The translations under genes and the position numbers were made by a program. The notes under the pieces were generated by a model, which was given only the letters and a program-made list of their open reading frames with translations, had not been told where the DNA came from and made no database searches. Below, in pieces: positions 10,576 to 53,753 of a DNA stretch of 64,000 bases. How positions within the stretch are numbered: position 1 is the first letter of the stretch; every line of letters starts with the position of its first letter. The DNA comes from a virus (taxonomy: Duplodnaviria > Caudoviricetes). The stretch lies in IMG/VR virus record IMGVR_UViG_3300031998_000044, positions 1-64,000 of that record. One strand, given 5' to 3'.

Positions 10576-10662
10576 CAAAAATCGATATTTATTAAATCTA
10601 TTACAATATCCTTATGTATTTTGTAAGAATATATTACAGAATTGTTTTGTGTCTTTATATTG
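10576..10662. promoter_or_regulatory. Divergent promoter: central palindrome CTTATG-N5-TGTAAG (10611-10627) with -7-like elements 27 nt away on both sides
   Basis: Minus-strand GATTTTTG at 10583-10576 and plus-strand TTATATTG at 10655-10662, each separated from the palindrome by 27 nt. Lies between divergent cargo and tail operons. Confidence 0.6.
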
Positions 10663-10691
10663 TCATTATCATACTTTATTTTTGTTGCATT

Positions 10692-11384
10692 ATGATACAA
10701 GAGTACAATTACATATCAATAAATGAAATAGTAGCAAGATGCAAACGGCATCCTTACCTTGCTGATATTTCCTTTGAGAAAGTAGTACAATATGTGCTTG
10801 ACTTTTTCAGGTTAGTTGGTCTACCAAAAATGTTCCTTGATAAAGACGAAATTATCGAAATAAAAGATTACAAAGGATTGTTGCCTTGTGATTTGATTCA
10901 AATTATACAAATACGTGATTTGAAATCAAAATTGTGTTTAAGAAGTATGACAGATTCATTTTTACCTAAGTGTCGACACGAGCGTTCAGATTTGAGTTTT
11001 AAAACACAAGGCAATATCCTTGTAGTATCATTTAGGCATGGTAAGGTAGAAATTGCTTATAAAGCATTGCCTATTGATAAAGACGGTTATCCTATGATAC
11101 TGGATAATCCTGTTTTCCTTAGAGCATTAGAATTGTTCATTCAAAAAGAAGAGTTTGCTATATTGTTCGATTTATCGCAAATTCCTCAAGTAGTTTATAA
11201 TGAAAAGAAACAGCAATATGCGTTAGCGGTAGCAGCGTTAGGAAGTGAACTTACATTACCGAGCGTTTCAGAAATGGAAACTATCGGTAGAATGTGGAAT
11301 ACGCTTATTCAAAGAACTACGGACTTTGATAGTGCATTCAAACATTTAGGAGATAGAGAATATTTAAGAGTTTTAAAACCATGA
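10692..11384 (+). CDS. crAss-like tail ring/tubular protein
   Basis: MIQEYNYISINEIVARCKRHP...GLLPCDLIQI...ALPIDKDGYP resembles crAss ring proteins; ORF track start 10614, likely ATG 10692. Confidence 0.65.
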   Translation: MIQEYNYISINEIVARCKRHPYLADISFEKVVQYVLDFFRLVGLPKMFLDKDEIIEIKDYKGLLPCDLIQIIQIRDLKSKLCLRSMTDSFLPKCRHERSDLSFKTQGNILVVSFRHGKVEIAYKALPIDKDGYPMILDNPVFLRALELFIQKEEFAILFDLSQIPQVVYNEKKQQYALAVAALGSELTLPSVSEMETIGRMWNTLIQRTTDFDSAFKHLGDREYLRVLKP

Positions 11385-11995
11385 TACAAATAAACAATAT
11401 TAATATAAACAAAACAGGAGATAAGATGCGCATAGAAGCCGAAATTATTGGTGACAGCGCATTTGTTAATCGCTATATTGATAAGATATATATCGATACT
11501 CATGACAGTTATCTTAGTACTGGTCCGTCAGAAGATACCGTATATGAGCATACTGTTACGATTGAAGATGCTGCAGACGAACAAAATGCAACAGCATTGA
11601 TAGACAACGTTGAACGTGTTAGAAAACTAAAAATTGATATACCACAAGAAAGTATAGATGCATCTTTGCAAACTAACATGTTCGTAGTTTATCTTGAAGC
11701 AGGTGGAACTAATGCAGATACACCACCTGCAGATTGCTGTGAAAATATCGAACTTGTCGCAGGTTGTGTAATATGGATGAAACCTCTTTATAATGACTTT
11801 CTTGCTTGGTCAAGAGAATTGAACAACACATGTGAAGTACCGCAAAATTTCTTATATAAGTTCTTGCATTACCAAGCATTCCTTGTATCAGTTAGGACAA
11901 GGAATATTTTGGAAGCAATTAAAATTTATAATAAGCACTTTAAACACATTGTTTGCGGTTCTCATGGTAATCATCAAGGCTGTAATTGTAGATAA
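11381..11995 (+). CDS. crAss-like tail hub-type protein
   Basis: 204 aa with Cys/His C-terminus (GSHGNHQGCNCR), between ring protein and fibre gene; synteny-based. Confidence 0.5.
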   Translation: MIQINNININKTGDKMRIEAEIIGDSAFVNRYIDKIYIDTHDSYLSTGPSEDTVYEHTVTIEDAADEQNATALIDNVERVRKLKIDIPQESIDASLQTNMFVVYLEAGGTNADTPPADCCENIELVAGCVIWMKPLYNDFLAWSRELNNTCEVPQNFLYKFLHYQAFLVSVRTRNILEAIKIYNKHFKHIVCGSHGNHQGCNCR

Positions 11996-12001
11996 AAATA
12001 T

Positions 12002-12595
12002 ATGGACGAGATATTATTTAACGCTTTTGAAGTATTACTAAAGGATTACGACGAGTACGGTTATTACAACGAGAAAGAAGTTTTAAAAGTACTCGCTGTA
12101 ATAACCATGCGTGATATGATGATGTTTGACTTAGATGGTTATCTTGAAGATAAAGATATACGGTTAATCGAGCGAAATATATATTGCTTGCTTGGTGAAT
12201 CGTGTATATTGCCTTTGCGTGTCAACGACCACAAATGCTGTCTTACAGGAGATATTTTTATATCACCATCTTATCCATTATATTTTGGCATAGGTTATAA
12301 AAGATTTGTCGAACGTGTAAAAGAAGCAGGTGCTAACTGGTTTGCTGAATTAAGAAACCTGATGAAACTTGCAGTTATTTCAATTTCAATCCAAGGTATT
12401 GATATACCGAAAAATAATGATGGAAATGTAGATTTGTCAGTACCTACATTAAATGAATTTATACAAGCATATAACAAACTTCTATTGTTTATTAAAGACG
12501 ACAACGACAAGCTTTATAACAGTACTTATAATGCAGGTACAAAAACACTTACTATCAATCCAAAACCAACTAATACAGAACCTTATAAAGAATAA
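12002..12595 (+). CDS. crAss-like tail hub-type protein
   Basis: 197 aa, coupled to the tail fibre gene; internal CLLGESCILP motif; synteny-based. Confidence 0.45.
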   Translation: MDEILFNAFEVLLKDYDEYGYYNEKEVLKVLAVITMRDMMMFDLDGYLEDKDIRLIERNIYCLLGESCILPLRVNDHKCCLTGDIFISPSYPLYFGIGYKRFVERVKEAGANWFAELRNLMKLAVISISIQGIDIPKNNDGNVDLSVPTLNEFIQAYNKLLLFIKDDNDKLYNSTYNAGTKTLTINPKPTNTEPYKE

Positions 12596-12597
12596 TT

Positions 12598-15500
12598 ATG
12601 GCGGATAAATTAGCACATATTGTAGTTGAGAATAACACATACGACATTCAAGACGAAGAATTAACTTCAAGAATAAACGGTTTAACTTTGTCTTTGACAC
12701 TAACAGAAGATTACAAAATTAAAGTAACACTAACTGATTCAATAGGGCAAAAGACATACGAATCTAATACTATTGATTTGCCGTCAGAAGATTCAATTAC
12801 AGAATTGGCATATGATAGTGAAGAAAAAGAAATCATTGCTAAGCACCGTAACGATACTTCTTCATCACAATGGCAGCGTATATCAATAGCTTCTATTATA
12901 GACGGCTTACAACAAGAAATGTCAGAAGGTGATTGTGTTGACATCGATAATAATACAATTAATGTTCTTTATGACAATGCTACATGGGGTATCGGTAAGA
13001 ACGATTCAAATCAACTGAAAATCAACGGAAAGTTTGTAAAACAAGTTGATGATTTAGATTCTTATACAAATGCTCCAAATGGTGAGATTGTTGAATATAT
13101 CGGCGAAACAAACAATGATTACACCAACGGTTATTTTTATAAAAGAATAGCAGGTGGGTCAACTGTAGAGTATACTACAATAACAATACCTGCTAACACT
13201 ACTTATATAACATACCATTTCCCTGACGGAACAGAAGAAACAGGCTATCAATTTAGTTCAGAAATGGGTGAAAATGCAAGTTGGTATGATTGGACTTCTC
13301 CAGTTGTAGAATCTTCGGACAGTGGTCCACTTGTTACATCTAACTGGTTTGTGGATGGTTCTCTTGTTAAAGTTAATGATACAATAACAGTTGATGACAA
13401 AGTAGGTGTAATAGATGCATTATACTGGGTTATAAATTTACCATTTGAATATACTTCTCTTGTAAACAATTCTGCCGAATATGCTGCATTGCAAACTACA
13501 CCTTCTGATAGTGGACCGACAATTAAAAATAAAAAATATATTTCAGCAAACACAATTACAGAAGCAGTAGCAATATATAAACAATTATGTGATGACGCTG
13601 ACTTACCTTATTCACCGTGGAACGATTATAGAGAGAAGATAGAATTATGCGGTTTTTCTTGTACAATAGACGAACATCAATATAATGTATTTTATGGTGG
13701 CGGAAGTGGTGGATATGGAGAAAATGCTGCATATAAACTAATATCATTAGATGGCAAAGTTCTGTTTATTAGAGAAACTACATCATTAGTACTTGATGTC
13801 GCAACAGAACTTAGAAGAGAATATGGCTATTTTAGTATATCATCTGATTCTTATTCTCAAAGCAGCAGAATTAGATATTATAACAATTTTCACTATAATT
13901 CTCCTACAACGGCTACATCAGGGACTACAACAGAAGAAATTACTATGACAGTTCCTATTTTGTATGATGAAAACGGTGAATTGCTTGACATTGAAATTGT
14001 TGAACCTTCTTGGCAAAGATGGGATGTTCAACCTTCTCAACAAGTTAATAATGGTCAATTGTTAATTCAAAAAAATGGAACTGATATAGTCTATTTTTCA
14101 GCTAATGATAACACTAATAAGATAGCTAATATTACAGTTCCGACTAAAACATCAGACCTTAATAACGATTCAGGATTCATAACAAAGGCAGTCAATGATT
14201 TATCATATTACTACACAAAAGATGTAATCGATACAATGATTGCTCCTAATCTAAGGTTTACAGTTGTTCAATCATTGCCTACGCAAGATATATCAAGTAC
14301 AACAATTTATTTAGTACCAAATAGTAGTAGTGAATCAACAAATACATATGATGAGTATGTATATATATCAACAGTAGCAACACCTCACTGGGAATTGATT
14401 GGAAGCACATCTGTTGATTTATCAAATTATTATACCAAAACAGAAGCAGACACCGAATTTGCTGATATTAGTCATACTCATACATCATCTGATATTACAG
14501 ATTTAGCAACTGTAGCATCTACTGGAAGTTATTCGGATTTATCAAACACGCCAACTATACCTCCAGCACAAGTCCAATCTGATTGGGCTCAATCTGATTC
14601 AAGTGAAGTTGACTATATATTAAATAAACCAACAATTGGTAATGCAGAAATCACAGTTAAAGTTGTAAATCACGTTTTTTCTGATGTTTCAAAGAATTTC
14701 AGAACAAATGATACTACAGATAAAACTATATCTTTTTACAATAGTGTTATATATTGTTATGGTGTTATAATTGATGGAACTAAAGAGTTTTATCAGTATG
14801 TAAGAAATGGAATTATTACAGGTCCTACAAGTTTGCATATTGATTACGATGGATACTATGGTAATGGTCCAGATTTTATAAATAACGATATTACATTCCC
14901 AAGAGTTGATGGTGCAGTATATAGAGATAATATTAATAGTAAAAAAGATATATATATATATAGCGAACAAGAACAGGACTTTGTATTGATATTAGAGCAA
15001 AACATTTATATTAGTGATTATAATACAATTGCTATCATAATTGATAAATTTACAGGTTATGCGTATTATAGACCAATGGGGCAAGATTTTATTGAAATTA
15101 AATCTCCTAATATATTACCTACTAATACTGTTGGTTCTTTGGTATCTCCTGTTTATGTTAATTCAGGTGAAATTGCACAAGGAGGTAAATTTCATACAAT
15201 AGATTCAACAGGAGAAATTGCTATAACATCAGGTACTGATTTAGATGATGTAATATTACCGGGAACATATGGAACGACAGGCGGCAATAGTTATTCAACA
15301 ATAGCATCAAGCCTTTCTAATTGTCCTGTTACATGTGGATTTAGAATGATTGTACAAACAGTAGGTAGCAATGATGATTATTTAAATCAAATTTTGTTTG
15401 GTAAAAATAATTCTGTTTATATAAGAACAGGACAAAAGAATAATTCAGTATATGATACTTGGACATCTTGGGGGCAACTTGCTGATAGTAGTAATTTCTT

Positions 15501-16197: not shown

Positions 16198-16212
16198 AAT
16201 TTGTAATTAATT

Positions 16213-16264
16213 CTTACATATAAAATAATACATATAGAATTATTTTATATTTCAATTAAATTTG
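16213..16264 (+). promoter_or_regulatory. Promoter: CTTACA half-site with TAAATTTG -7 element at the conserved spacing
   Basis: CTTACA 16213-16218; TAAATTTG 16257-16264; 45 nt upstream of ATG 16309. Confidence 0.6.
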
Positions 16265-16308
16265 TAATACAAATAAATAATAATTAAACAACTAAAAAAA
16301 TAAGTATT

Positions 16309-17202
16309 ATGTCTGAAGTTATATCTTTGCCTGATAATGGCAACAAATCTGGTTCTATTCCGTTCTCAATCCCGATTGGCGGCAATGGAAATGGTTTTTT
16401 CGGGAATGGTAACACCAATCTCATTGATATTCTGGGCTTCGCAATTATTGCATCGATGTTCGGATGGAACAATGGCGGTTGGGGCGGCGGCTTTGGCGGT
16501 GGTGCTAATGGCGCAGGTTTCATCTCTAATCAACTTAACAACGATTCTGGAAGAGAATTGATAATGAACGCTATCAATGCTAATGGAGAAGCAAGCCGTA
16601 GTGCAATTCAAAATCTTGCCAACATGCTTGGTCAAGATTATTCAACAGTAAATACTGCTATCCAGAACGTACAGAACTCTTTGGCAGCAATTGGTGCGCA
16701 GCAAGGAATGAGTACCCTCCAAGTTATTAATTCTATTCAATCAGGTAACACAGCATTAGCATCTCAGTTGCAACAGTGCTGCTGCGAAAACCGTTTGCTT
16801 ACCACACAGCAAGGTTATGAAGCTCAAATCAGAACACTTGAGCAAACCAATCAACTTGGCGCACAAGCAGACCGTAACAACAACGCAGTGCTGCAAGCAA
16901 TCAACGCACAAACAGTTGCTATTGACAACCAATTCTGTGCGCTAAAAGAACGTGAAATGCAAGCTAAGATTGACGCACAAGCTGATACTATTACACAATT
17001 GAGATTGCAGATTGACAACTCTAATCAAACTAACCAAATCCTTGGTTATGTAAACAACTTGTTTGCACCGTTGCAGACAAAAGTAAACGAGATAGCAGCA
17101 AAACAACTTCCTACCGTTCCTGTTCAATATCCGCAGTTACAAGCAATTAACACAGGAGCATACACAGGTGGTGGTTATTACGGTAATAACATATTATTTT
17201 AA
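16309..17202 (+). CDS. Hypothetical membrane-anchored Gly-rich / Gln-Asn coiled-coil protein (QCCCENR motif)
   Basis: Hydrophobic helix (LIDILGFAIIASMFGW), Gly-rich linker and long heptad-like region; a family type I recall from gut phages, function unknown. Confidence 0.7.
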   Translation: MSEVISLPDNGNKSGSIPFSIPIGGNGNGFFGNGNTNLIDILGFAIIASMFGWNNGGWGGGFGGGANGAGFISNQLNNDSGRELIMNAINANGEASRSAIQNLANMLGQDYSTVNTAIQNVQNSLAAIGAQQGMSTLQVINSIQSGNTALASQLQQCCCENRLLTTQQGYEAQIRTLEQTNQLGAQADRNNNAVLQAINAQTVAIDNQFCALKEREMQAKIDAQADTITQLRLQIDNSNQTNQILGYVNNLFAPLQTKVNEIAAKQLPTVPVQYPQLQAINTGAYTGGGYYGNNILF

Positions 17203-18144: not shown

Positions 18145-18145
18145 A

Positions 18146-21047: not shown

Positions 21048-21081
21048 AATTCACATCATCGCCATTTAGTGTTTATTTTTT

Positions 21082-21117
21082 ATGCCACTTCTATTCATTT
21101 AGTTGTGGCATTTTTTT
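21082..21117 (+). terminator. Rho-independent terminator
   Basis: ATGCCAC/GTGGCAT stem plus T7 run after ORF 20205..21047. Confidence 0.7.
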
Positions 21118-22045
21118 ATCACTATTCATTTGTCTTAACTTGTTTATTTATTTGATATTTAAGATAACTTTAAGAGAACTTTCTTATCAAATACCTATAA
21201 CTCACTTAATTCCTTATTTGATTTTAAGACAAATCTAATTTGCCTACAACTTGTAAGCACTTCTTACACATTATACTTTCTTATCATTCTCCTGACGTCA
21301 GGAAATTGATATAAATTTATCTATCCATCATATTGCTATCATCAGCAAAACGTTATCTCAAATTGGACTTATTTATCTATTTGTATATCACTTGTTTGCA
21401 GATTTTAATCAACAAAATTGGACGTAAATCATATATAAAATTGGTCATTTCGAGCATATCCTCGATATGTTTAATTCTCTTTTCTAAGCAATTATTTTTC
21501 ACAAGACGAACATTTTATCAGCTTCTATAATATATCTTGTCTTATGGCTTAAAATTGGCTAAATACGAGGTTGTAGGATAATTTTGTATAGGAGTTATTA
21601 TGACGATGAGGAGTGTATGTGTAAGAGAGAGGAATAAACCCCTATAATCCGCCACCATCATTTGAGATTGGGATTTATCCCCCCGTCTCCTTTTTGGAAT
21701 CGAAATTCGGCAGAAAATTCCAAAAAGTAATTCTTACTGCCGCACGTAGAACCGCCAACGTGTAATAAAAAGTAGCGGTGACTGCTAATCAGAGATGTTA
21801 GCCGCACTGTATGTTGTGAGTTAAAAAACATACATATTGGTATCAACAGCCATTGCTAACAAAGTCCTGTTGTTGACAGACAAAATCTTTTTTAATAAAC
21901 CAAAGGATAAGGCAAACATAAAACCCTAAAATCCTTTTCCCTCTTTTAGCATTGAAAATAAATTATTGTATAACCAAAAACGCCCAAACTTTTGAACGTT
22001 CAATGTCGGCGTTCTCTTAGAGTTTCTATTGTAACCGTTACTATT

Positions 22046-22486
22046 ATGGCACAAGTTAAGACAGTTGAATTGAAGTACGCCAATCCCAAACGTGTAATGA
22101 AAGCCTTCACTGGCGGTAAACCTCAGATGTGCGAAGTCGGCGGATTTGTTGCCGAGACTACTGCAGACGAGCAGTTCTTGAAAGTCGCAAAATACTTGCA
22201 CTCTCGCAACGAGGAAGGCAACGTTCAGGTTAAATACGAATTCGAGGGTCTCGGTCGTGTTATCTGCAAGATGACTGAAAACGCTCGAATTGCCGACCTT
22301 TCTGACGTTGTTTATTTCGTTCAGGAATACGACTTCCAAGGCGAAACACGTGCGCAAATCACGTTTGCTACCATCAGCGACAACTCTGACATCGACAATT
22401 TCGACGAAACCGAATCGACTTCTGACGAGGAAGACGAGGACGAGGGAATCGAAACTCCTGCTCCCACCAAGAAAGGTAAGAAGTAG
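22046..22486 (+). CDS. Hypothetical protein with acidic C-terminal tail, GC-richer codon usage
   Basis: ORF track start 21992; likely ATG 22046 (MAQVKTVELK). Tail DIDNFDETESTSDEEDEDEG; many TTC/TAC/AAC/GAC codons. Confidence 0.7.
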   Translation: MAQVKTVELKYANPKRVMKAFTGGKPQMCEVGGFVAETTADEQFLKVAKYLHSRNEEGNVQVKYEFEGLGRVICKMTENARIADLSDVVYFVQEYDFQGETRAQITFATISDNSDIDNFDETESTSDEEDEDEGIETPAPTKKGKK

Positions 22487-22508
22487 TCGTCGCCTAACTT
22501 AACGCCAT

Positions 22509-22536
22509 TGCACACGGCTTTGTAGTGTGCAGTTTT
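22509..22536 (+). terminator. Terminator-like hairpin
   Basis: TGCACAC/GTGTGCA stem followed by GTTTTT. Confidence 0.55.
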
Positions 22537-22537
22537 T

Positions 22538-22607
22538 AACCGTGCAAAGTTTATCGTGCTACGCTTCGGCGAAACCACGATTGGGAGTGTTGCCCACACG
22601 GTTTTTT
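22538..22607 (+). ncRNA. Candidate structured RNA (three-way junction with C-UUCG-G tetraloop)
   Basis: Nested pairings AACCGTG/CACGGTT, ATCGTG/CACGAT, CGC-TTCG-GCG and GGG/CCC; family not recognised. Confidence 0.4.
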
Positions 22608-22611
22608 ATTA

Positions 22612-22680
22612 TGCCATAGGTTGGTGCTGCATTGGTAATAAGCCTTTGTTCTCGGCAGTTCGATTCTGCATTATGGCACT
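22612..22680 (+). ncRNA. tRNA-like element lacking a recognisable anticodon arm
   Basis: Acceptor-like stem TGCCATA/TATGGCA and T-arm GCAG-TTCGATT-CTGC; interior too short for a canonical tRNA. Confidence 0.35.
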
Positions 22681-22800
22681 CTCGTGATACATCGGTACTG
22701 ACTTTTGCACGTTTTTGTCAGCGTTGATGAGCTTATGAAAAATGTGCAATTAACTTATTCACAGTTAAATAAATTTATAAACACTCTAAATTTAATTACC

Positions 22801-23151
22801 ATGAAAACACTCGTTAAAATTTTGCTCGCAATTGTATTTATCATTGCAATCGTTTTGAACTGTATGTCTGCTTCTTATGCAGCCGAACCAACAGAAAGCG
22901 AACCAATATTCTCTGCATCTTATGCAAACCAAGTTAAGGCAGAGTACAATAACGCACAGTTCTTGGTTGTATTGTCACAGAACGGTCACTATGAGATAGT
23001 CAACGACTTCTTATGGCTAATCGACAACTCTGTTTACGACATCACAATTGAGAACTGGAACAAATTCCAACGCCGCTACACCAAGTTCTTACAAGCCAAA
23101 CGTGCTTTAAAACAAGGCTGGAACGTTGAGTTCGACGACTTCCTTAACTAA
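22801..23151 (+). CDS. Secreted/membrane protein with signal peptide; paralog of 30189..30500
   Basis: MKTLVKILLAIVFIIAIVLNCMSASYA signal-like N-terminus; shared AQFL...L..ID.S.Y...NV.FD pattern. Confidence 0.6.
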   Translation: MKTLVKILLAIVFIIAIVLNCMSASYAAEPTESEPIFSASYANQVKAEYNNAQFLVVLSQNGHYEIVNDFLWLIDNSVYDITIENWNKFQRRYTKFLQAKRALKQGWNVEFDDFLN

Positions 23152-23196
23152 ATGCACACTGACGGTAGAGTTATGCTTTGCCGTTAGAGTGTTTTT

Positions 23197-23232
23197 GCCG
23201 CTCCGTACATCATCATTACGGGGCGGTTTTTT
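23197..23232 (+). terminator. Rho-independent terminator
   Basis: GCCGCTCCGTA/TACGGGGCGG stem plus T run. Confidence 0.6.
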
Positions 23233-23259
23233 ATTGTCTAACAATTAATTCATACAACT

Positions 23260-23382
23260 ATGATAGTATCAACAAACAGAGTAGTCAACGGCAAAGTGCA
23301 GTACTACTACATCGTCAACGGTCAATTAGTTACCGTAGGCTCGCTCGATGAAATCAAACAATACATCGAATCAAACGACTAA
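23260..23382 (+). CDS. Small hypothetical protein (40 aa)
   Basis: MIVSTNRVVNGKVQYYYIVNGQLVTVGSLDEIKQYIESND; below the ORF-track cutoff, A-rich start context. Confidence 0.45.
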   Translation: MIVSTNRVVNGKVQYYYIVNGQLVTVGSLDEIKQYIESND

Positions 23383-24060
23383 CCAACAAACAGCATAATA
23401 CCGCCGAGTTCCCACTTGACGGTATTTTTTCGCAGTAAATTTCAGTAGTTTAGTGCGTTCCGTGAACCCTAACAAACCTTTACCTCTTTGCAGATAGCAA
23501 CATTCGTAGTTTAGAATATCTGTATTCCTACGGTTGTATAGAATATCTGCGCTGCTTACTGCAAATTTGCCAACTACGGTTCGTAATGACATTCGCTGTA
23601 TTTGCCCCGAAATTTGCCATTTAAGACAGTTTATTCCAAAAGTGGTACAAGTTATCCACTCAATATGAAATAATGTCTTAAATCAAACAAAATAAAAGCA
23701 AGTGCAAAATGTCATTTTCCAAAACACAAATTTATTTTTTGGGTGATTTTATTTTGGTTATTCGCAATTTGCTGATTTGCAGATTATTAATTGCAGCAAA
23801 TCCGAAATATGCATATCAGGAAATCTATTCTACAACCCTTGTAACTCACTGATTATCAACGACTTAACCCAAAAACGTCCAATTTTAAGTAAACAGATAG
23901 CAAAAACCTATCCACAACACATTGTAGACGTGATTAACGGTTAAAAACTCACACTAAAATTGGATAAAAGGTAAAGCAAAACAGACAATAAACTTGAAAG
24001 AAAGTGTAAATTATACACAAAGCCTTTTAAAGTTGAAAAGATAAAAACAGATTAATTCGG

Positions 24061-24480
24061 TTTATAAGCGATGAAGATAAAACTAGATTTTTAGACAATT
24101 CGCAGTTTCAAAAAAAAAAAAAAATAAAAACCGAAATTTGTTAAAGAAACAAAAAGAAAGAAGAAAAACAGAAAAAGAAAAGAAAGAAAAAGAAGCAAAA
24201 AGAAAAAAATAAAAAGATAAAAAGAATAAATAAAAATAAAGAAAGATAAATAATAAATATAATAAATAAATAATAATAATAAAACTGATTATATAATAAC
24301 TATAAATAATATAAAATATTTAAAATAAATAATATATAATAAATAAATTATAGTATAATTATAAATATAAATAATATAATTAAATATAATATATATAGTT
24401 TGGTAAAAAATAAATTAATTCTTAAAAACCAAATTATTTTTGTTAAAAATTGTTAAAATATTTAATAATTATACTATATG
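24061..24480. repeat. Low-complexity A/purine-rich then AT-rich tract (candidate origin/unwinding element)
   Basis: A11 run, (GAAA/AAAG)n and (AAT)n blocks almost free of C; non-coding, directly upstream of the replication operon. Confidence 0.5.
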
Positions 24481-24566
24481 TAATTCTAACTTACAAAATA
24501 ATTAAGTAGTAAATCATAATTAACAAAATATAATTTAATTTACAACGAATTTAAATCAATAAAAAG

Positions 24567-25028
24567 ATGCAAAACGAATTAACAAAAGTTGAAGTGAAAG
24601 AACTGCAAAGAGAGTTAAGTAGTCAGATAGACGAAATAATCAGAGCAGTAAAAGATGGAGAGGTCAACGCCATCGAAGTAAAAGCCAAAAGTAACATCAT
24701 TAAGAAAGAACTTGAAAGAATCGATAATGCTATTGAAGAAGAAGTTAATAGCGAGATTGACAAGTATGGCGATAAATTCGAGTTTAAGGGACTTGAAATA
24801 TCGAGGACGTATGCTAAGACATACGATTATAATTCAATTCCTGAAATAGCGAATTTAAGCCTGAAAATAGCAGATTTGAAGAAAGAGCAAGACGAACTTA
24901 AAAAGAAATACAAAGGCACAACTTACAAAACGACAATAGTTGACCAAGAAACAGGTGAGGTAATCAAAGAAGAAGAAAGAACATTGCCTTATACAACAAC
25001 AACAAGAATTACAATCAAAGTTAAATAA
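24567..25028 (+). CDS. Hypothetical coiled-coil protein of the recombination module
   Basis: 153 aa, first gene of the rightward early/replication operon. Confidence 0.55.
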   Translation: MQNELTKVEVKELQRELSSQIDEIIRAVKDGEVNAIEVKAKSNIIKKELERIDNAIEEEVNSEIDKYGDKFEFKGLEISRTYAKTYDYNSIPEIANLSLKIADLKKEQDELKKKYKGTTYKTTIVDQETGEVIKEEERTLPYTTTTRITIKVK

Positions 25029-25189: not shown

Positions 25190-25402
25190 ATGGAACAGAA
25201 GAAAAAAAAGACACTAAGATTATTCCTGGCGAATAAAGGAAGAAAGTTTACAGCTTGTAACATCAATCGTCTTATTGACACAGGAGATGCAAGAAAGATT
25301 ATATCGGACCTTAGAAAAGCAGGACATCCGATTAAAGACGAAATATGCAATAAGAAGAACGGCACAAAGTACTATTATTACGAACAAGAAAAAGAATATT
25401 AA
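25190..25402 (+). CDS. Small winged-HTH DNA-binding protein
   Basis: FTACNINRLIDTGDARKIISDLRKAGHPIKD...GTKYYY resembles phage wHTH proteins. Confidence 0.5.
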   Translation: MEQKKKKTLRLFLANKGRKFTACNINRLIDTGDARKIISDLRKAGHPIKDEICNKKNGTKYYYYEQEKEY

Positions 25403-31884: not shown

Positions 31885-32145
31885 ATGAACGCAAAGCAAA
31901 TTCAAAACCAATACAAGTCAATCAAGGAGAATTATCCTAATATGATATTGCTATTCAACGTAGGCAGTAACTACATTGCACTTCGAGATGATGCCAATGT
32001 TGTTGCCAAGGTATGTGGAATAGAGAAAATAAATACTATTGTAAAATTTAATTGTAACAAACTTGATGACTATTTGTTCAAACTTGTACGGTCTGGACAT
32101 AAAATAGGAGTTTGTGAAGAATTACCAAAACCAAATGACAAATAA
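31885..32145 (+). CDS. Stand-alone MutS domain I-like protein
   Basis: YKSIKENYPNMILLFNVGSNYIALRDDANVVAKVCGI...YLFKLVRSGHKIGVCE matches the MutS N-terminal mismatch-binding domain pattern. Confidence 0.7.
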   Translation: MNAKQIQNQYKSIKENYPNMILLFNVGSNYIALRDDANVVAKVCGIEKINTIVKFNCNKLDDYLFKLVRSGHKIGVCEELPKPNDK

Positions 32146-32502: not shown

Positions 32503-32554
32503 CTTACGTTTTTTGTAAGTTATAGTTATTTCAGAAGAAATATGAATAATTTTG
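32503..32554 (+). promoter_or_regulatory. Promoter: CTTACG-N5-TGTAAG plus TAATTTTG
   Basis: Palindrome 32503-32519; -7 element 32547-32554; ATG at 32575. Confidence 0.65.
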
Positions 32555-32574: not shown

Positions 32575-33045
32575 ATGAGAATAGTAAATCAAAAATCAAA
32601 CCACGATGCTTATGTAGAAGCTGAAAAAACAGCATACGATACGTTTACAACTTGGTTAAAAGAGAATATCAACGAACAAGTGAAATCAAAATGTAAGATA
32701 ATACAGTCTTGGCTACTCGAATTTTTCAAACTAAACAAAAAGCCTACTTTTAGCCAAGTTCAAACGTATTGCAATAATCTTAAATCACAATATCTTCCAA
32801 ATTCATCGTATGAAGATATGAATATCGTTATAACAAAAGTAAATTCTCTTGATAATGACAAAACGTTCTATTTCGATATTTTTATTGACTTTAACGGCAT
32901 ATATCAAAGGCAGTTGATACAAAGTAACTGTATGCCTAATAAAGACGGTAAACCGATTATTTTGGACATAGAAATTACTGACGATGAATTAGATGAACGT
33001 ATCAAGCAACAAGCGATAATTGACGGTGAATTTGAAGAAATATAA
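32575..33045 (+). CDS. Hypothetical protein
   Basis: ORF track start 32491; ATG 32575 (MRIVNQKS) fits the promoter position. Confidence 0.55.
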   Translation: MRIVNQKSNHDAYVEAEKTAYDTFTTWLKENINEQVKSKCKIIQSWLLEFFKLNKKPTFSQVQTYCNNLKSQYLPNSSYEDMNIVITKVNSLDNDKTFYFDIFIDFNGIYQRQLIQSNCMPNKDGKPIILDIEITDDELDERIKQQAIIDGEFEEI

Positions 33046-35906: not shown

Positions 35907-37115
35907 TCAAAAAGATAACACGAAATCTATAACCTTCCTATTAGCAGAATCCACCTTATTATAATCAAACTTAATGTAAATATCTGTAACTGTATTGCCT
36001 TCGTGTCCAAGTGCGTGAGCAATGACATCACGGCTAATATCTAACTGTGAAGCGAGAGTAGCCCAAGTATGTCTTGCCCAATATGTACTTAGTTCAGGGA
36101 ACAACGGAGATACAGTTTTCTTTCCACATTCGTCATATTGAACATCTCCGACACGCTTCAAGTTCTTATTAAATCGTTCCAAGAAGTCCTTGTAGTTGTG
36201 ATAACCGTCAAGGATATTCAAAAGATAATCGACACCTTTATATATATTAAGAATATCCAACGCTTCGGGTTCAAGTTTAATTGAGTACAGACGTGATGTC
36301 TTTGCTCTTTTAAATTCCAATCTACCGTTAACAATATTGTCTTGCGTACAGTGAAGTAAATCAACCATATTGATACCTATAAGATAAAAATCAAGAATAA
36401 AGAGGTCTACATATTTTTTAAGATAGTCCTCAACAGGATAGGTCATAAACATACGTAGCTCAATAACTGTTAACGAGCGTTTACGTGTCGGTATAGGTCG
36501 AATTTTAAATGTACGGAAAGGATAATGCGAAGTGATTTCGTTATCTATGGCATCATTAAAAACAGCACGAATATTACGTAAATGAACATTGCGACCGTTT
36601 TTAGAATTAGAGGTCAAGGCTAAGTGATTCTCGAAATCAGTAAGCCAACCTTTATTCAAATCTTCAAATCGCTTAAAATCAATATTTTTGTCGAAGTCGT
36701 GAATACGTTTTAATGTGAATAAGTAGATGTTTTTTGTAGTAACGTTTAATTTTCGATTAGCAAATTTTAAAAAATAATTACAAAACAAATTTTCATCAGT
36801 AGGCTTATTATCAGACAATTGCAAATCTATTGCTGCCTTTACTTCATTAACATCGTTAAAATTTATATTTTTATTTACAAACGAAAATATTATTTTATCA
36901 ATTTTATTTTTAAACTCCAAGATAAAGGACATTAATGTTTCTTTATTAGGCACACGAAGAATTTTTTGTGATACGTTGTCCCAACAGTTAGGTTGCAGTT
37001 TTATTTTTAGTGGAAAGTAGACGGCTTTTTGCTTGTAGGTAACAGCCAATTTTAATGATGCAGGTGAGCCGTCCTTCGTGTGCCTTTTATCAAGGTAAAA
37101 TTTTGTCGTTATCAT
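35907..37115 (-). CDS. int: Tyrosine recombinase/integrase, Bacteroidales type (arm-binding N-domain)
   Basis: N-terminus MITTKFYLDKRHTKDG...LAVTY, NIRAVFNDA, catalytic STYWARHTWATLA...LGH...TDIY. Likely start 37115 (track 37145). Confidence 0.92.
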   Translation of the reverse strand: MITTKFYLDKRHTKDGSPASLKLAVTYKQKAVYFPLKIKLQPNCWDNVSQKILRVPNKETLMSFILEFKNKIDKIIFSFVNKNINFNDVNEVKAAIDLQLSDNKPTDENLFCNYFLKFANRKLNVTTKNIYLFTLKRIHDFDKNIDFKRFEDLNKGWLTDFENHLALTSNSKNGRNVHLRNIRAVFNDAIDNEITSHYPFRTFKIRPIPTRKRSLTVIELRMFMTYPVEDYLKKYVDLFILDFYLIGINMVDLLHCTQDNIVNGRLEFKRAKTSRLYSIKLEPEALDILNIYKGVDYLLNILDGYHNYKDFLERFNKNLKRVGDVQYDECGKKTVSPLFPELSTYWARHTWATLASQLDISRDVIAHALGHEGNTVTDIYIKFDYNKVDSANRKVIDFVLSF

Positions 37116-37139
37116 AACTTCAAATTTTAAACAAATTTT

Positions 37140-37330
37140 TTGCAAGTATTCTTGCTAATTTAATTTTTAATTTATAATTTAGTGCTTTGAATTACGATGA
37201 TAACAGGTTGATAATGTGCCATAAAAAGTCGGGGCAGAGAGATTCGAACTCTCGACCTTCTGCTCCCAAAGCAATATGTTCAATCCTGTGTTTCATCAAC
37301 TTACAAATGCATTGCAAGTAAATTGCAAGT
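37140..37330. repeat. TTGCAAGT direct repeats (37140, 37312, 37323) flanking the tRNA fragment: putative integrase arm sites
   Basis: Three exact 8-mers, one on the int side and a tandem pair on the other side of the core. Confidence 0.55.
37228..37273 (-). other. 3' half of tRNA-Pro(TGG): putative attP core
   Basis: Reverse complement TGCTTTGGGAGCAGAAGGTCGAGAGTTCGAATCTCTCTGCCCCGAC covers the anticodon arm (TGG), T-arm and 3' acceptor strand. No D-arm or 5' half upstream; about 110 nt from the int start. Confidence 0.8.
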
Positions 37331-37344: not shown

Positions 37345-37361
37345 CTTACAAATTTCGTAAG
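37345..37361. promoter_or_regulatory. Palindrome CTTACA-N5-CGTAAG in the int/dnaB divergent region
   Basis: One mismatch to the consensus; no -7 element at the 27-nt spacing on either strand. Confidence 0.45.
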
Positions 37362-37409
37362 GCAAAAATGAGCATTAATTTGCAATAAACAAAAAAATAA
37401 ACACAAAAA

Positions 37410-38738: not shown

Positions 38739-39031
38739 AGATGTGCAAAGGATGTAGTTTCTATATTAGTAAAGGTGTTTGCAGTTTAAAACACATAAAA
38801 GTAAGTTCTAAGACCGCTGCCTGTTCGTCGTATAGCGACGTAAACACTGTCCCGGTAAGAACTGAAACTTGTGCCACTTGCAAACACCATTTTTTACCTG
38901 ACAAAGAATACCCTAATTATTCGCTGTATAGAGATTACAAAGGAGATTTTTTTCTCTGCAAATGCAAGTTTCACAAAGAAGCAAAATTTTTAAACAAAGA
39001 TTATTGTAAAAAGTATGAAAAAAGCAGATAA
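38720..39031 (+). CDS. Cys-rich putative metal-binding protein
   Basis: Two CxxC...C...C units. Confidence 0.45.
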   Translation: MDGDGIEMCKGCSFYISKGVCSLKHIKVSSKTAACSSYSDVNTVPVRTETCATCKHHFLPDKEYPNYSLYRDYKGDFFLCKCKFHKEAKFLNKDYCKKYEKSR

Positions 39032-39563
39032 TAACTTCATATTCAAATACGACGAAATGAAAGCAATAGAACTTCAAAACAATTACAATAAAATCAAGGT
39101 AAAATATCCTGATGCAATTTTGCTATTTCGCGTAGGCAACAACTTCATTGCACTTCGAGATGACGCAAACATTGTAGCAAAAGTCTGCGGAATACAGGAA
39201 ACAAACACGATTGTTAAATTCAGTTACAACAAACTTGACGACTATTTGCCCAAACTTGTACGGTCGGGACATAGAACGGCAGTTTGTGAAGAACTCCAAC
39301 TCCCAAAGAAAACGCCACACCAAATATCAAACGAATGGCAAAAGTTTGAAATCAAATATGGAGTACCAAGGTTTAGCCAACTTCTTGACAACAACCTTGC
39401 ACTACTTGGAAAATTTGTTATCGACATAATTAAATTTGACGATTGGTTGCACAAACAATTCGGCGACTATGAATCAGAAGACAAGTCTATGAGCGGCATT
39501 TTGTTGGAGAAGTACGGATACGACATACAACAATATGTCAAACAAATGATTGAAACTTTATAA
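39015..39563 (+). CDS. MutS domain I-like protein with C-terminal extension; paralog of 31885..32145
   Basis: YNKIKVKYPDAILLFRVGNNFIALRDDANIVAKVCGI...YLPKLVRSGHRTAVCE. Confidence 0.7.
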   Translation: MKKADNNFIFKYDEMKAIELQNNYNKIKVKYPDAILLFRVGNNFIALRDDANIVAKVCGIQETNTIVKFSYNKLDDYLPKLVRSGHRTAVCEELQLPKKTPHQISNEWQKFEIKYGVPRFSQLLDNNLALLGKFVIDIIKFDDWLHKQFGDYESEDKSMSGILLEKYGYDIQQYVKQMIETL

Positions 39564-39616: not shown

Positions 39617-39961
39617 ATGATAGAAACAACTTGTCCTTATTGCAATAACGTAGACGAATTCGACGCTGATGGTTTTTCAGACGATGACAGAAGTTTACAA
39701 GAATGTTCAAAGTGCGGCAAAGTATATAACATCTACATTAAAATTACAGTAGATTGTGATTGTACACCGTGTCCGTGTCAAGGCATAAACCACGAATGGG
39801 AACTAATACCAACAATTCCAAAAAATTTTACAAAAAAAAGATGTAAACACTGCGGAGAAGAAAAAGAACTCACCGATGAAGAACGCAAGCAGTACAAAAT
39901 TCCGTCAAAGGAATCATACTTCAAAGAATTAGAAAAACTTAGTAAAGAATCACCATTTTAA
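39617..39961 (+). CDS. Zinc-ribbon protein
   Basis: CPYC, CSKC and CKHC motifs. Confidence 0.55.
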   Translation: MIETTCPYCNNVDEFDADGFSDDDRSLQECSKCGKVYNIYIKITVDCDCTPCPCQGINHEWELIPTIPKNFTKKRCKHCGEEKELTDEERKQYKIPSKESYFKELEKLSKESPF

Positions 39962-49011: not shown

Positions 49012-49230
49012 ATGTTTGACTACGAGAACACAGGAATTAAAGATGACAATAACGAACCAATTTTTGAAGGGAATACAGTAATTGGTTATCCAAGCAAAAC
49101 AGAATACAAGGTAATTTATTCACCTGAATTTGCCGCTTTTGTAGGAAGGCATACAAGTAAAAACAAAACATCAGATGTGCCTTTATTTACACTGAAACTT
49201 ATGTATAAAAACAAATTATTTAAGAAATAA
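49012..49230 (+). CDS. YopX-like protein (C-terminal part)
   Basis: TGIKDDNNEPIFEGNTV resembles the YopX TGLKDKNGKEIYEGDI motif. Confidence 0.55.
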   Translation: MFDYENTGIKDDNNEPIFEGNTVIGYPSKTEYKVIYSPEFAAFVGRHTSKNKTSDVPLFTLKLMYKNKLFKK

Positions 49231-49776
49231 TGGGAGCAATAAATTATTGTACATCGCCAAGAATTTGTACTTTGGGATATTACTTTACAGATTACGAAGA
49301 ACCTGATGAAAACGATATTCTTGAAACAATAGCGATAAATAACGTTAGCCGTGAAGTTGCAAAAGAAATATTACGTGATAATTTTTACGATTCAATAAAC
49401 GAAGATTTTGATGCAGTAGATTCTTTATTAGATAAAGATAAAAATGATTGGAAGTATTACGAAATCACAGTTAAAGATGGCTATCATGAAGGATTTTATG
49501 TAAATTTCGACAATGTATACATAGCATTTGATGAAGATAGGCAAAGACTTGAAATGCACAAAGAACTTACTCAGATAAGACAAAGAATACTCAAATGCAT
49601 AAAAGAATATGGTATGCGAATTACAATACCTCATTGGTGTCCAACTTGGTATAAAACAATCGATGAATCGTACAAAAAACTAAATGAATTAATTAAAGAA
49701 GAAAGAAAATTTATAAACTCTATTAAAGTCGAATCATAAAATTATTATATTTGTAAAATTTTAAATATCAAAAAAA

Positions 49777-50175
49777 ATGTTAGTAGAAATCACAGGTAAA
49801 TTAGTATTAGTAGAAAAACCTACAGAACGTAATTGGAACAATCAAATTATCAAAAGTCAGAAAATCTTACTTGACACATACGATTGGGACAAAGTTAACA
49901 AAGTACAAATCGAAATCAATCCCGACAAGATTAATATGGGTAATGCTCAAATCGGAGACATTATTACCTTCAAGTGTAAAATTGAATCGAAAGAATCCAA
50001 AAATGGAACGTGGTTTACGAATATCAAAGGATATGCAATAAGCGACCATAAGCAGAGCCAATCACAGCCACAACAACCACAGCAGCCACAGTCTTATGTT
50101 CAAACTGCTCAACCTGTTCAGCAACCTCAACCTGTACAGCAGCAACAAGTTAACGATTCAGATTTACCTTTTTAG
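49777..50175 (+). CDS. ssb: SSB-like OB-fold protein (DUF3127 type)
   Basis: EITGKLV...IESKESKNGTWFTNIKGY, Q/P-rich linker, acidic DSDLPF C-terminus. Confidence 0.75.
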   Translation: MLVEITGKLVLVEKPTERNWNNQIIKSQKILLDTYDWDKVNKVQIEINPDKINMGNAQIGDIITFKCKIESKESKNGTWFTNIKGYAISDHKQSQSQPQQPQQPQSYVQTAQPVQQPQPVQQQQVNDSDLPF

Positions 50176-50710
50176 ATATGCACGCAGGACTAAATATTAT
50201 ATTCCAATCTTGCAAAGACCGAATAATATCTGACATCAAATGTTATTTGGAGGACAAAAAAGACCAATGCTGTCAATTGGAAGAATTACCGTACAAAGTA
50301 TGGAACGATATTGATGGCATTGTAATTACTTATTATTTTGCAAACGTTTTTATCGACAATGACGGTATAGTGAAAGTAGTATACCGTTATGGCTTAGGTA
50401 CTACACCACAAGATACAAATCCTGATACTTGCCCATTAGATGACCTCTCAATGGATGAGTTGTGGGCAATAATTCAACGTATCGAATAAAAATAAATCTC
50501 CTATTTTAGCACCTTTTCGCAACTTTCTGCGGAGAGGTGCGTTTTTATAGGAATAACAAATTAACTAAGTAGTATATGACACGCAAAGAAGAACTTGAAA
50601 AAAACTCGATAGTCTGTTAGAAGAATTTAAGGACATCGATTACGAAGAAGTGGTTGAAACACTCGAATACTATGCTTTTATCTACCAATCAAAAATAAAC
50701 CGAGAATAAT

Positions 50711-51304
50711 ATGGTTACACTAAATGACATAAAGAACGCAAATAATATTTGTTCTGTGTTTAAACGTCACAGATATAACAAGGGAATATTACTTGATGCT
50801 TTCTTGTTTGATACACTTGAAGATTTCGACATAAATTGTCATTATAAATACGATTTCGATGTTTATTTGACAAAGTTTGGAATAAATTTGCAAAGACCGT
50901 ATGTTTGGGAATATTACCAACAACAAGAATTAATATTATCTCTACTTTTTGAAAAACAAGTTGAAAAGGTTGTTGCTATATTGCACAATAGCGATTTAAA
51001 CCGTAAAAATGCAGTAATGTTTATCATTGACGGAAAGCAACGATTATTAACAATTTATAAATTTATACACAATGAGTTCCCTATAAATCTTAATGGGAAA
51101 CAAGTATACTTCAAAGATTTTGATAAGGATGCTTACTACTTTTTCCGTAGTCGAGTAAATTATATTCTTGCTGATGTATATTACTCTTATGATAATGAAC
51201 CGATTTCTGACGAGGAAAAAATAATCATATTCAATTTTTATAACTTCTCAGGCACTCCACAGACTGAAGAACATAAGAAAAAACTTGAAGCATTATTACA
51301 ATAA
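50711..51304 (+). CDS. DUF262/ParB-like domain protein
   Basis: LQRPYVW...LILSLL, IIDGKQRLLTIYKF, F..YNFSGTP. Confidence 0.7.
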   Translation: MVTLNDIKNANNICSVFKRHRYNKGILLDAFLFDTLEDFDINCHYKYDFDVYLTKFGINLQRPYVWEYYQQQELILSLLFEKQVEKVVAILHNSDLNRKNAVMFIIDGKQRLLTIYKFIHNEFPINLNGKQVYFKDFDKDAYYFFRSRVNYILADVYYSYDNEPISDEEKIIIFNFYNFSGTPQTEEHKKKLEALLQ

Positions 51305-51337
51305 ACACGAATTACTAACAATTAAAACATTACAGCT

Positions 51338-51955
51338 ATGAAGAAACTATTATTTATCTTGCTCGCAACGATATGGTGTATCGGAGCAAACGGACAAAAT
51401 ACAAATAATCAAACACAAAAATATTATGAAGATATTTGCACTCCAATGATTGAAATCAAAAACATTCATCCAGAATCAATAACCAAAGAACAAATAATAG
51501 AATTAAATATTTTTGTTGATAAATATAATAAAATAAATGAAAATAAAATTATTGACCATATTGAGATTGAACCAAATATTGAACCATTTAGAGTTATTTG
51601 TCTAAATAAAGAAAATTCGGTTATTGGTCATATATGTTTAGCGTCAACAGGAAAATATAATACAACATATAAGATATTAAAAAAAGGTAGAATTTATTGC
51701 AAAAGGAATTTAGAAAAAAATGAATATTACTTAGGCAATGAAATTCCTAATCAATATGAACATGATAAAAGGTTTAATATTATTGGATTATTTTTTATGC
51801 CATATATGAATAGCGAATATCCTTATTATGGTATAGGGTTATTTGGATATGATTTGAATCGTTTAGAAATAGATTATGAGAATAAAATTGTAGATTTATT
51901 AATGGAAAAACATATATATTATACTACGATAATACAACAAGCCTTAAACAATTAA
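51338..51955 (+). CDS. Secreted protein with signal peptide
   Basis: MKKLLFILLATIWCIGANG-Q N-terminus typical of Bacteroidetes exported proteins. Confidence 0.6.
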   Translation: MKKLLFILLATIWCIGANGQNTNNQTQKYYEDICTPMIEIKNIHPESITKEQIIELNIFVDKYNKINENKIIDHIEIEPNIEPFRVICLNKENSVIGHICLASTGKYNTTYKILKKGRIYCKRNLEKNEYYLGNEIPNQYEHDKRFNIIGLFFMPYMNSEYPYYGIGLFGYDLNRLEIDYENKIVDLLMEKHIYYTTIIQQALNN

Positions 51956-51960
51956 TATTT

Positions 51961-51997
51961 AAGCCGTCTTGGGTAACTTCCCTTGACGGCTTTTTTT
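51961..51997 (+). terminator. Rho-independent terminator ending the early region
   Basis: AAGCCGTC/GACGGCTT plus T run. Confidence 0.75.
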
Positions 51998-52011
51998 CTT
52001 AATAACTAATT

Positions 52012-52063
52012 CTTACATATAATGTAAGTGTTTGTTTTTGTATTTAGTTTATTTCTTTATTTG
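52012..52063 (+). promoter_or_regulatory. Promoter: perfect CTTACA-N5-TGTAAG plus TTTATTTG
   Basis: Palindrome 52012-52028; -7-like element 52056-52063; ATG at 52095. Confidence 0.65.
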
Positions 52064-52094
52064 TGAAGTTATTAACTTCTAAAAAATTAAAAAA

Positions 52095-53519
52095 ATGAAT
52101 ATAAATACAAATGACTATGTAGTAGTAAATGGAAAAAAATATTACGCAGAAGGTGGTATAAAATATTTTGATAATGGAGGACCAACTAAAAAAGAACTTA
52201 AACAATTTGTTGATTGGAATTCCAATCGTATGAATAAAAAATCATTAAGAGGACCAACTTCATGGCGTTCAGGGGATGAAAAAGACGAAGATTTTGCAAA
52301 GCAATTTATTCAGAATATGCAAAACTATGTAAATCCAAATGATAAGAATAAATTGACATTAACTCAAGCAATGCATATTCAAGATTTATTAGATTCAGTA
52401 CCAAAATATGTAAAAGACGAAGATTTATACGATGTATATAATAGTGAAGGTAAATTTGCTGGATTTGAAGATAGTCCTGAACTTATGAATTTACGTTGGG
52501 CAGATAAATATAATAATATTGATGATATTATTAGTAATCGTAGTCTAATGTTTAAAAATGTATATAATTCACCTGAATTTCAAAATAAAGTAAAAGAATT
52601 TCTTTCTACAAAACGTGGTAATGGTTCATATATTGAATATAAACATCCAATAACAGGTGATGATATGTATTATAGGTTTTATATTGGTAAAGATGGGGCA
52701 GGATTTGTACCTGATTTTAATGCAAAAAGTAAAGGATTTGAGCCTATTGTTACACTTAGAGGAAATGGAATAGAAAATACAGAAGAATATGAAATTGAAC
52801 CTGAAAAAAGAGAAATTTATAATGGTGAAGAAATCGTAATTCCTGCAAAAAAAGGTAGAAGATTTATTATTAACCAAAATGAAAAAAATAGAATAGACAA
52901 CGGTTATAGTTATGGAAATTTTTATGAAGGTTCTGAATCTAATCCTGTAAATCTTGGAACAGGAGAAAAAATAGAGTATTATAACAATTTAAAAAATTTA
53001 AATGCCAACGACCAATATAAACAAATAAAGGAAAACCATGCATACGGTGGTCCTACTACTCGTCTTTTCGCAAGCGGCGGTGATATGGGTGCTATTCCTA
53101 TGGGTGAACAGCCTGACTACAATATGGTAGGCGCAGGTGGAAGCCACGAAATGAATCCGCAAGGCGGTGTGCCATACGGAATGAACACAGACGGAAGCCA
53201 AAATATGGTAGAACAAGGCGAAGTTTCTGTTGGAAACAACGTATTTAGTGACCGCACAGCAATATCGCCCGAACTTTGTCAACAACTTGGATTACCCGAA
53301 GGTACATCACACGCACAGGCAATGCAGCAAATTGAAGCATTGTATGAGCAAGGACAAATTGGCGAACAAGAATACCAAGAAATCTCCCAAATTCTTTTCC
53401 AAGACCAAGAAGCGCAAAAACAAGGTGGTGGTATGCCGCAACCTCAAAACGAAGGTATTCAGCCTGAAATGGTAGCACCCGAAGGTTATGCTTGGGGTGG
53501 TCGTAGAAGATGTAGATAA
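52095..53519 (+). CDS. crAss-like virion cargo protein (GGSHExNPxGG domain)
   Basis: GAGGSHEMNPQGGVPYG...NMVEQGEV...VFSDR is a conserved crAss cargo motif; several aromatic-x-GG motifs. Confidence 0.7.
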   Translation: MNINTNDYVVVNGKKYYAEGGIKYFDNGGPTKKELKQFVDWNSNRMNKKSLRGPTSWRSGDEKDEDFAKQFIQNMQNYVNPNDKNKLTLTQAMHIQDLLDSVPKYVKDEDLYDVYNSEGKFAGFEDSPELMNLRWADKYNNIDDIISNRSLMFKNVYNSPEFQNKVKEFLSTKRGNGSYIEYKHPITGDDMYYRFYIGKDGAGFVPDFNAKSKGFEPIVTLRGNGIENTEEYEIEPEKREIYNGEEIVIPAKKGRRFIINQNEKNRIDNGYSYGNFYEGSESNPVNLGTGEKIEYYNNLKNLNANDQYKQIKENHAYGGPTTRLFASGGDMGAIPMGEQPDYNMVGAGGSHEMNPQGGVPYGMNTDGSQNMVEQGEVSVGNNVFSDRTAISPELCQQLGLPEGTSHAQAMQQIEALYEQGQIGEQEYQEISQILFQDQEAQKQGGGMPQPQNEGIQPEMVAPEGYAWGGRRRCR

Positions 53520-53542
53520 TTTCCATAGAGTGTTTATTTTTT

Positions 53543-53574
53543 GCCGTTAGGTACTTCACCTGACGGCTTTTTTT
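53543..53574 (+). terminator. Rho-independent terminator
   Basis: GCCGTTAGG/CCTGACGGC plus T run. Confidence 0.7.
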
Positions 53575-53701
53575 ATTACAAAAATAGTAAGGATAATTGT
53601 TGGTTATAAATTACCATAATTTTATATTTGTATCTGTTTTTGAAATTTTTATATTATTATTCCTCAGCCGTCGGTAGTTTTTATCGACGGCATTTTTATT
53701 A

Positions 53702-53753
53702 CTTACACATTTTGTAAGGTATTAAAAATCAACGGTAATATATAGTATTTTTG
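53702..53753 (+). promoter_or_regulatory. Promoter: perfect CTTACA-N5-TGTAAG plus TATTTTTG
   Basis: Palindrome 53702-53718; -7 element 53746-53753; follows a hairpin at 53667-53697; ATG at 53779. Confidence 0.7.

Follow-up and report, generated by a model that had tools for sequence, protein, structure and literature searches.

Here we describe a class of promoters, marked by a palindromic box at one fixed distance from the core promoter, in a crAss-like phage (Duplodnaviria; Caudoviricetes; IMG/VR record IMGVR_UViG_3300031998_000044). The window (the whole stretch of DNA analyzed, 64,000 nucleotides) is the first 64 kb (70%) of a single 90,711-bp contig; the remaining 26.7 kb is called out-of-window DNA below. 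The box is the 17-bp palindrome CTTACA-N5-TGTAAG (the dyad), and it lies 27 nt upstream of a TTTG-type −7 box at promoters that head operons scattered over the genome, most of them for virion and cargo proteins.

Crass-type portal, large terminase, and major capsid proteins were identified with PHROGs, and tail ring 1, ring 3/4, hub A, hub B, muzzle protein, and cargo proteins 1 and 2 with Pfam. The virion RNA polymerase motif DFDVD lies within an open reading frame (ORF) of 2505 amino acids (aa). Identity of the capsid protein to its Steigviridae counterparts in GenBank (cr85_1, DAC15/17, IAS virus, crAss001-like isolates, and phi14:2) does not exceed 50%, and a DNA search of 10.6 kb of the window against GenBank phages gave no match. 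Gene layout suggests a circularly permuted contig; the ORFs running off its two ends showed no in-frame join.

Results

The initial annotation listed five promoters with a distance of exactly 51 nt between the first C of the box and the final G of TTTG, and all five (10627 on the minus strand, 16213, 32503, 52012, and 53702) were found where it had placed them and at that distance. Their shared core is shorter than the palindrome: CTTAC was present at 7/7 sites, A at the sixth position at 6/7, and T, A, and A at positions 13 to 15 at 7/7. Of the palindrome, only the distal half, CTTACA, and the proximal TAAK are general to the class; the rest of the proximal half is not. A relaxed box, CTTACR-N7-TAAK, had 13 strand-specific matches at nine loci genome-wide (approximately 1.7 matches expected). 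All nine loci were intergenic, although noncoding DNA makes up 9% of the genome, and coding DNA had none. The final G of TTTG was at an offset of exactly 51 from the first C at seven of the nine, and none was at 50 or 52.

Two of these seven boxes, 66334(−) and 82647(−), lie outside the window, each with TTTG at offset 51 and each aimed at a gene start. At the background TTTG frequency (0.0088 per position), two out-of-window matches at offset 51 are expected by chance with a probability of ~8e-5, and this replication is the best control for the geometry. The 27-nt spacers between box and TTTG were 34% identical, against 35% expected from composition. With spacers so unlike in sequence, the promoter units are not copies of a cassette: what they conserve is the anchors and the spacer length, which is under selection.

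Enrichment over shuffled sequence, by which the initial annotation had proposed to judge the motif and spacing, was strong: CTTACR-N7-TAAK-N31-TTTG occurred five times in the window (0.02 expected), a count reached by 0/100 shuffles. The perfect palindrome occurred twice in the window (0.00 expected) and, with one mismatch or fewer, four times (0.24 expected; 0/100 shuffles reached four). With two mismatches or fewer, the count was near chance (8 versus 4.2 expected), and some two-mismatch copies may be chance. When every 6-mer in the noncoding DNA was scored blindly at each distance of 8 to 89 nt upstream of TTTG, CTTACA at offset 48 ranked first (5/16 occurrences, p=2e-7), a value reached by 0/500 dinucleotide shuffles. 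By raw counts the pair was unremarkable, as T-rich words dominated the null distribution, and when the blind scan took in coding DNA as well, over the whole genome, the pair did not stand out. The motif-spacing signal belongs to intergenic DNA. The failure of the whole-genome scan and the near-chance number of two-mismatch palindromes are what could be said for a pattern arisen by chance in AT-rich intergenic DNA, or for copies of one duplicated promoter cassette. Set against the strong enrichment, the geometry replicated at two out-of-window sites, and the unrelated spacers, that explanation has next to no chance of being right and was rejected. The promoters with this one rigid geometry form a distinct class, real and well defined.

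Each promoter unit lies on the sense strand, 15 to 45 nt 5′ of a start codon. The dyad CTTATGTATTTTGTAAG (10611 to 10627; minus strand, CTTACAAAATACATAAG) occupies a 134-nt divergent gap between a minus-strand cargo/giant-protein operon and a plus-strand ring/hub operon. On the minus strand, the −7-like box GATTTTTG (10576 to 10583) has its G at 10576, which is 51 nt away from the C at 10627; the ATG (10557) of a gene for a 446-aa protein follows 18 nt after this G. A weaker, noncanonical plus-strand box, TTATATTG (10655 to 10662), reported earlier at the same spacing, is indeed present at the 51-nt offset, 29 nt before the ATG at 10692, and a second candidate plus-strand box, TATTTTTG (10677 to 10684), stands ahead of the ring protein 1 gene. 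The start of the ring protein 1 gene is not at 10614 but at the ATG at 10692, since similarity to relatives sets in only at residue 27 of the longer ORF, so the 10611 dyad is intergenic and not coding.

The other four units in the window are on the plus strand. The unit at 16213 to 16264 (CTTACATATAAAATAAT, 27-nt spacer, TAAATTTG) directly follows the stop codon of a gene for a 1199-aa protein, and that at 32503 to 32554 (CTTACGTTTTTTGTAAG, 27 nt, TAATTTTG) lies 20 nt before the ATG at 32575. The units at 52012 to 52063 (CTTACATATAATGTAAG, 27 nt, TTTATTTG) and 53702 to 53753 (CTTACACATTTTGTAAG, 27 nt, TATTTTTG) have perfect dyads, and the terminators claimed ahead of both were confirmed on the plus strand: a hairpin of −19.9 kcal/mol with a seven-U run (51961 to 51999) just upstream of the former and a hairpin with a T-run (53667 to 53701) directly upstream of the latter. 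At the 82647(−) unit, the terminator of the terminase operon is nested in the spacer (13-bp hairpin, −17.3 kcal/mol; genome positions 82590 to 82650, minus strand), and its U-run doubles as the −7 box. Two units thus follow a terminator and one encloses one, and by this location the units mark new transcription units. The dyad itself was considered as an intrinsic terminator or RNA hairpin and rejected, as it folds with only −4 to −6 kcal/mol and forms no stem at 4/8 sites; the real terminators adjoin the dyads and are separate from them.

All seven canonical sites have TTTG as the −7 box, with T at the first position at 6/7 and TA at 4/7; the weak plus-strand box has ATTG instead. The consensus for Bacteroidota sigma-A is TTTG at −33 and TAnnTTTG (TAHHTTTG) at −7, with the G at −5 (PMC6847099). 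The reading of TTTG as the Bacteroidota −7 box fits both these positions and the kinship with Steigviridae. Given a G at −5, the dyad would span about −56 to −40, with its center near −48. Like Bacteroidota sigma-A promoters (PMC6847099), the units have the −7 box, no G at −10 or −9, and a start-codon distance that fits short leaders; unlike them, they carry this extra conserved dyad, and a suitably spaced −33 TTG (approximately 19 to 21 nt upstream of the −7 box) is present at 3/8 sites only: 10627(−), 52012, and 66334(−).

The claim that the sites head virion or virion-adjacent blocks was borne out. Behind 10627(−) lie the genes for the 446-aa protein, cargo protein 2 (7124 to 9217), and a giant protein, and behind 10611(+) those for ring 1, hub A, hub B, and a 1199-aa fiber-like protein. 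The site at 16213 is followed by 16309 to 17202 (phrog_16490) and then by further genes of a module without assigned function, the last of which is amidase/lysin-like. Downstream of 52012 is a protein with a crAss cargo protein 1 domain (52095 to 53519); the upstream neighbor of this site, a 205-aa protein, had no usable match in ESM Atlas or family searches. The site at 53702 heads a Bro-N protein (53779 to 53982), a virion structural protein (54221 to 54937), and the muzzle protein (54852 to 59054). Outside the window, 66334(−) heads a pre-capsid gene, the capsid gene, and ring 3/4, and 82647(−) heads small genes, the portal, the virion RNA polymerase, and a 1514-aa protein. Nearly all particle genes thus lie behind a dyad box, the exception being the terminase-side operon.

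That exception is headed by a promoter of another kind. At genome position 88592(−) (about 88560 to 88600), an A-tract, TTTGGA, N20, and TATATTTG make up a tripartite promoter of the phi14:2 type ahead of an operon of small genes, tRNA-Gln, and the terminase. As it matches phi14:2 middle promoters, the promoters of this genome fall into at least two classes. For some genes downstream of the dyad sites, the homologues in phi14:2 are middle genes.

Copies of the box that lack the 51-nt spacing, reported earlier at 24490, 37345, and 53575, are real. The dyad CTTACAAATTTCGTAAG (37345 to 37361, plus strand) lies in the interval from the integrase/attP region to dnaB; 13 nt separate its end from TTAATTTG (37375 to 37382), and it hence overlaps the −33 position. 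The box CTTACAAAATAATTAAG (24490 to 24506, plus strand) lies 47 nt downstream of an TATTTTTG box (24435 to 24442) and 60 nt before the ATG at 24567, inside the predicted leader of the first early gene. The third, ATTACAAAAATAGTAAG (53575 to 53591, plus strand), has two mismatches, with TATATTTG ending at offset 55, and is possibly chance. It lies in a stretch (53520 to 53778) in which a terminator, the two-mismatch dyad, a −33/−7 promoter (TATATTTG, 53623 to 53630), and a second terminator follow in succession; this arrangement could yield an RNA of approximately 60 nt.

Relatives were sought by capsid protein in IMG/VR, GTDB genome contigs, and metagenome contigs, and nearly all matches were at most 52% identical. 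Three short or partial capsid matches reached 57%, and the sole full-length one among them is on 2.5 kb that ends short of the promoter. The comparison covered approximately 170 stretches of crAss-like phages with 37 to 57% capsid identity; a protein search also showed closer capsid relatives (P0002 to P0011) at 56 to 77%. In more distant relatives, the orthologous pre-capsid promoter is an ordinary TTG-N20-TAnnTTTG, and blind k-mer/offset scans of relatives returned just ordinary −33 blocks or back-to-back −7 boxes. The exact full pattern gave 59 single matches in IMG/VR, which were rejected as true relatives of the class: they are on unrelated contigs, at chance level, and the only shared gene encodes one 78-aa protein.

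Discussion

Activator sites classically take the form of a dyad at one fixed distance upstream of a core promoter, and on this ground a dimeric activator is favored. We consider it probable that a dimeric protein, itself probably made by the phage, docks at the dyad and recruits the host RNA polymerase, and that the units form a middle/late promoter class. The host sigma-A RNA polymerase would read the TAnnTTTG −7 box, with the transcript starting about 5 nt after the G. Middle and late genes of the related phage phi14:2 are read by the host enzyme (Drobysheva et al., bioRxiv 10.1101/2020.03.07.982082), and no sigma-factor family was found among the approximately 120 proteins scanned with Pfam. 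CTTACA-N5-TGTAAG, with CTTACR-N7-TAAK as its required part, would be the docking site of the sequence-specific dimeric protein, most likely a phage-encoded product of the early block. Once docked, this protein would recruit or stabilize the polymerase, so that the scattered virion, cargo, and virion RNA polymerase operons fire together. The divergent dyad (10611 to 10627), 43 nt from the box on either side, could serve both promoters.

Recognition could also be direct, the box being part of an extended promoter, either as an upstream element for the host enzyme or as a promoter for newly made virion RNA polymerase. The exact spacing over 51 nt and the unequal conservation of the half-sites would suit such a reading, and RNA polymerase subunits have been speculated to transcribe the late genes of crAss001 (PMC8375218). 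The TTTG box, however, is a hallmark of host sigma-A, and three perfect palindromes point to a symmetric binder. Moreover, middle and late transcription in phi14:2 is rifampicin sensitive, and the virion-polymerase transcripts have no common upstream motif (Drobysheva et al., bioRxiv 10.1101/2020.03.07.982082). We regard direct reading as very improbable.

The off-geometry copies bear on two further explanations. The box could be the operator of a lysogeny or timing repressor that silences the virion, early, and dnaB promoters by looping or by blocking upstream polymerase contacts. Signs of lysogeny are the integrase and the tRNA fragment that resembles an attP, and the copies at 24490 (in a leader) and 37345 (over a −33) occupy usual positions of repressor action. 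Usual operators, however, overlap −33 to +1 and tolerate variable placement, whereas the seven sites lie wholly upstream of the core promoter and in one exact phase, as is typical of positive control; we hold a repressor to be unlikely. Under activation, the same two copies could, speculatively, let the activator damp early and replication transcription. A wider scheme would make one phage protein, acting through one box in three geometries, the master switch from early to late expression or out of lysogeny, with each crAss lineage keeping its own pair of box and protein at the same distance. At −48, the protein would rigidly recruit the Bacteroidota sigma-A polymerase and replace the weak −33 contact, and from the box over the dnaB −33 and the box in the early leader it would shut down early and replication transcription. 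This scheme is rather unlikely.

One candidate for the proposed activator is a 70-aa protein of the early block (25190 to 25402, plus strand), whose predicted winged-helix fold is HTH_39-like (ESM Atlas score 0.94, TM 0.83). No relative of it was found in IMG/VR, and one was found at 77% on a 1.2-kb contig. Other candidate binders are the short Bro-N protein (53779 to 53982) and a protein with a weak zinc-ribbon match (39617 to 39961). None of the three can be tied to the box.

Several points weigh against a phage-made dimeric activator. Neither Pfam nor PHROGs assigned a helix-turn-helix family to phage proteins, and the winged-helix call made for 25190 to 25402 in the initial annotation stood with ESM Atlas but received no family from either database. 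Symmetry is incomplete, with both halves perfect at only 3/8 sites, and the promoter-distal half is the better conserved at 4/5 asymmetric sites, so recognition could be asymmetric; contact with the polymerase could compensate for a weak proximal half. The center near −48 matches neither the classical class I nor the classical class II activator position. The genes behind 32503 are of unknown function and lie inside the replication block. A weak −33 element is normal in Bacteroidota promoters (PMC6847099) and is therefore weak evidence for activator dependence. Last, the motif was absent from the approximately 170 compared stretches (37 to 57% capsid identity). This absence also counts against the box being the site of a borrowed host transcription factor, through which virion expression would track a physiological signal of the host: those phages infect the same phylum, and a conserved factor would be expected in wider use. 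That family searches assigned no phage regulator would agree with a host factor, which we nevertheless judge decidedly unlikely.

Among phages with a regulator of the favored kind, the late promoters of P2 and P4 carry a partial dyad, TGT-N12-ACA, at about −55 and require a small zinc-finger phage activator (Ogr/Delta). As in P2 and P4, several scattered and presumably late operons here share a partial dyad at a fixed upstream position, and this phage is apparently temperate as well; the box sequence and the host polymerase differ, and no Ogr-like protein was found beyond the weak zinc-ribbon match at 39617 to 39961. In Mu (C; about −30 to −55) and phi29 (p4 at A3; centered near −82), a dimeric phage protein binds an inverted repeat that overlaps a poor −35 region or lies upstream of it and turns late genes on. 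These sites differ from the dyad sites in position, sequence, and host. The p4 protein of phi29 also represses early promoters from differently placed sites, a dual role that resembles the one speculated for the 24490 and 37345 copies. A common dyad at a fixed upstream position, the mark of the P2 Ogr, Mu C, and phi29 p4 kind, was found at seven units, and the dyad-tagged promoter class is a familiar phage strategy in a new form.

Within crAss-like phages, the claim of a new regulon held in part. Shared tripartite middle/late promoter motifs are already published for phi14:2 and beta-crassvirinae genus VI (Drobysheva et al., bioRxiv 10.1101/2020.03.07.982082), and those are of another design; literature searches turned up no account of a dyad of this sort in the group, the nearest published item being this tripartite promoter. 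The two systems have in common a motif shared ahead of virion and RNA polymerase operons, the TAnnTTTG box, and a presumed host polymerase. The phi14:2 promoters (g070, g075, g108, and g110) combine an A-rich tract with a −35-like TTGnnT placed 17 nt from the box, whereas the dyad sites have no A-tract, most lack the TTG block, and the dyad instead ends 27 nt upstream of the box. In the relative cr85_1, CTTGCA lies approximately 21 nt upstream of the box, and in another relative the distance is 18 nt; no such block is general here.

CrAss-like phages are the most abundant human gut phages, and how their virion genes are switched on is known only in outline (the host polymerase and the motif of one subgroup). 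The present genome offers a testable regulon of seven promoters with one box and one distance, together with a contrasting second class and differently placed early and replication copies. The boxes could serve as DNA baits for the regulator, and the promoters offer a compact inducible design for genetic work in Bacteroidales. Should other crAss lineages keep the layout with other boxes, it would characterize the order in general.

Other features of the window

A tyrosine integrase with a Bacteroidota-type arm-binding domain adjoins a tRNA-like attP core (35907 to 37300). The attP-like stretch is the reverse complement of the 3′ half of a tRNA and is flanked by TTGCAAGT repeats. From the integrase and the apparent attP, the phage may be temperate.

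A stretch of approximately 3.5 kb (21048 to 24566) has no long ORF, and tRNA and Rfam scans of this gap (21 to 24.6 kb) found nothing. Within it, an everted TGTAAG-N5-CTTACA is present at 21252 to 21268; the TAAG-N7-CTTA layout was not found at the box loci of the genome. The repeat AAAATTGG(A/T)C occurs four times between 21368 and 21560 and possibly represents origin iterons. MutS domain I forms the main part of two separate proteins (31885 to 32145 and 39015 to 39563).

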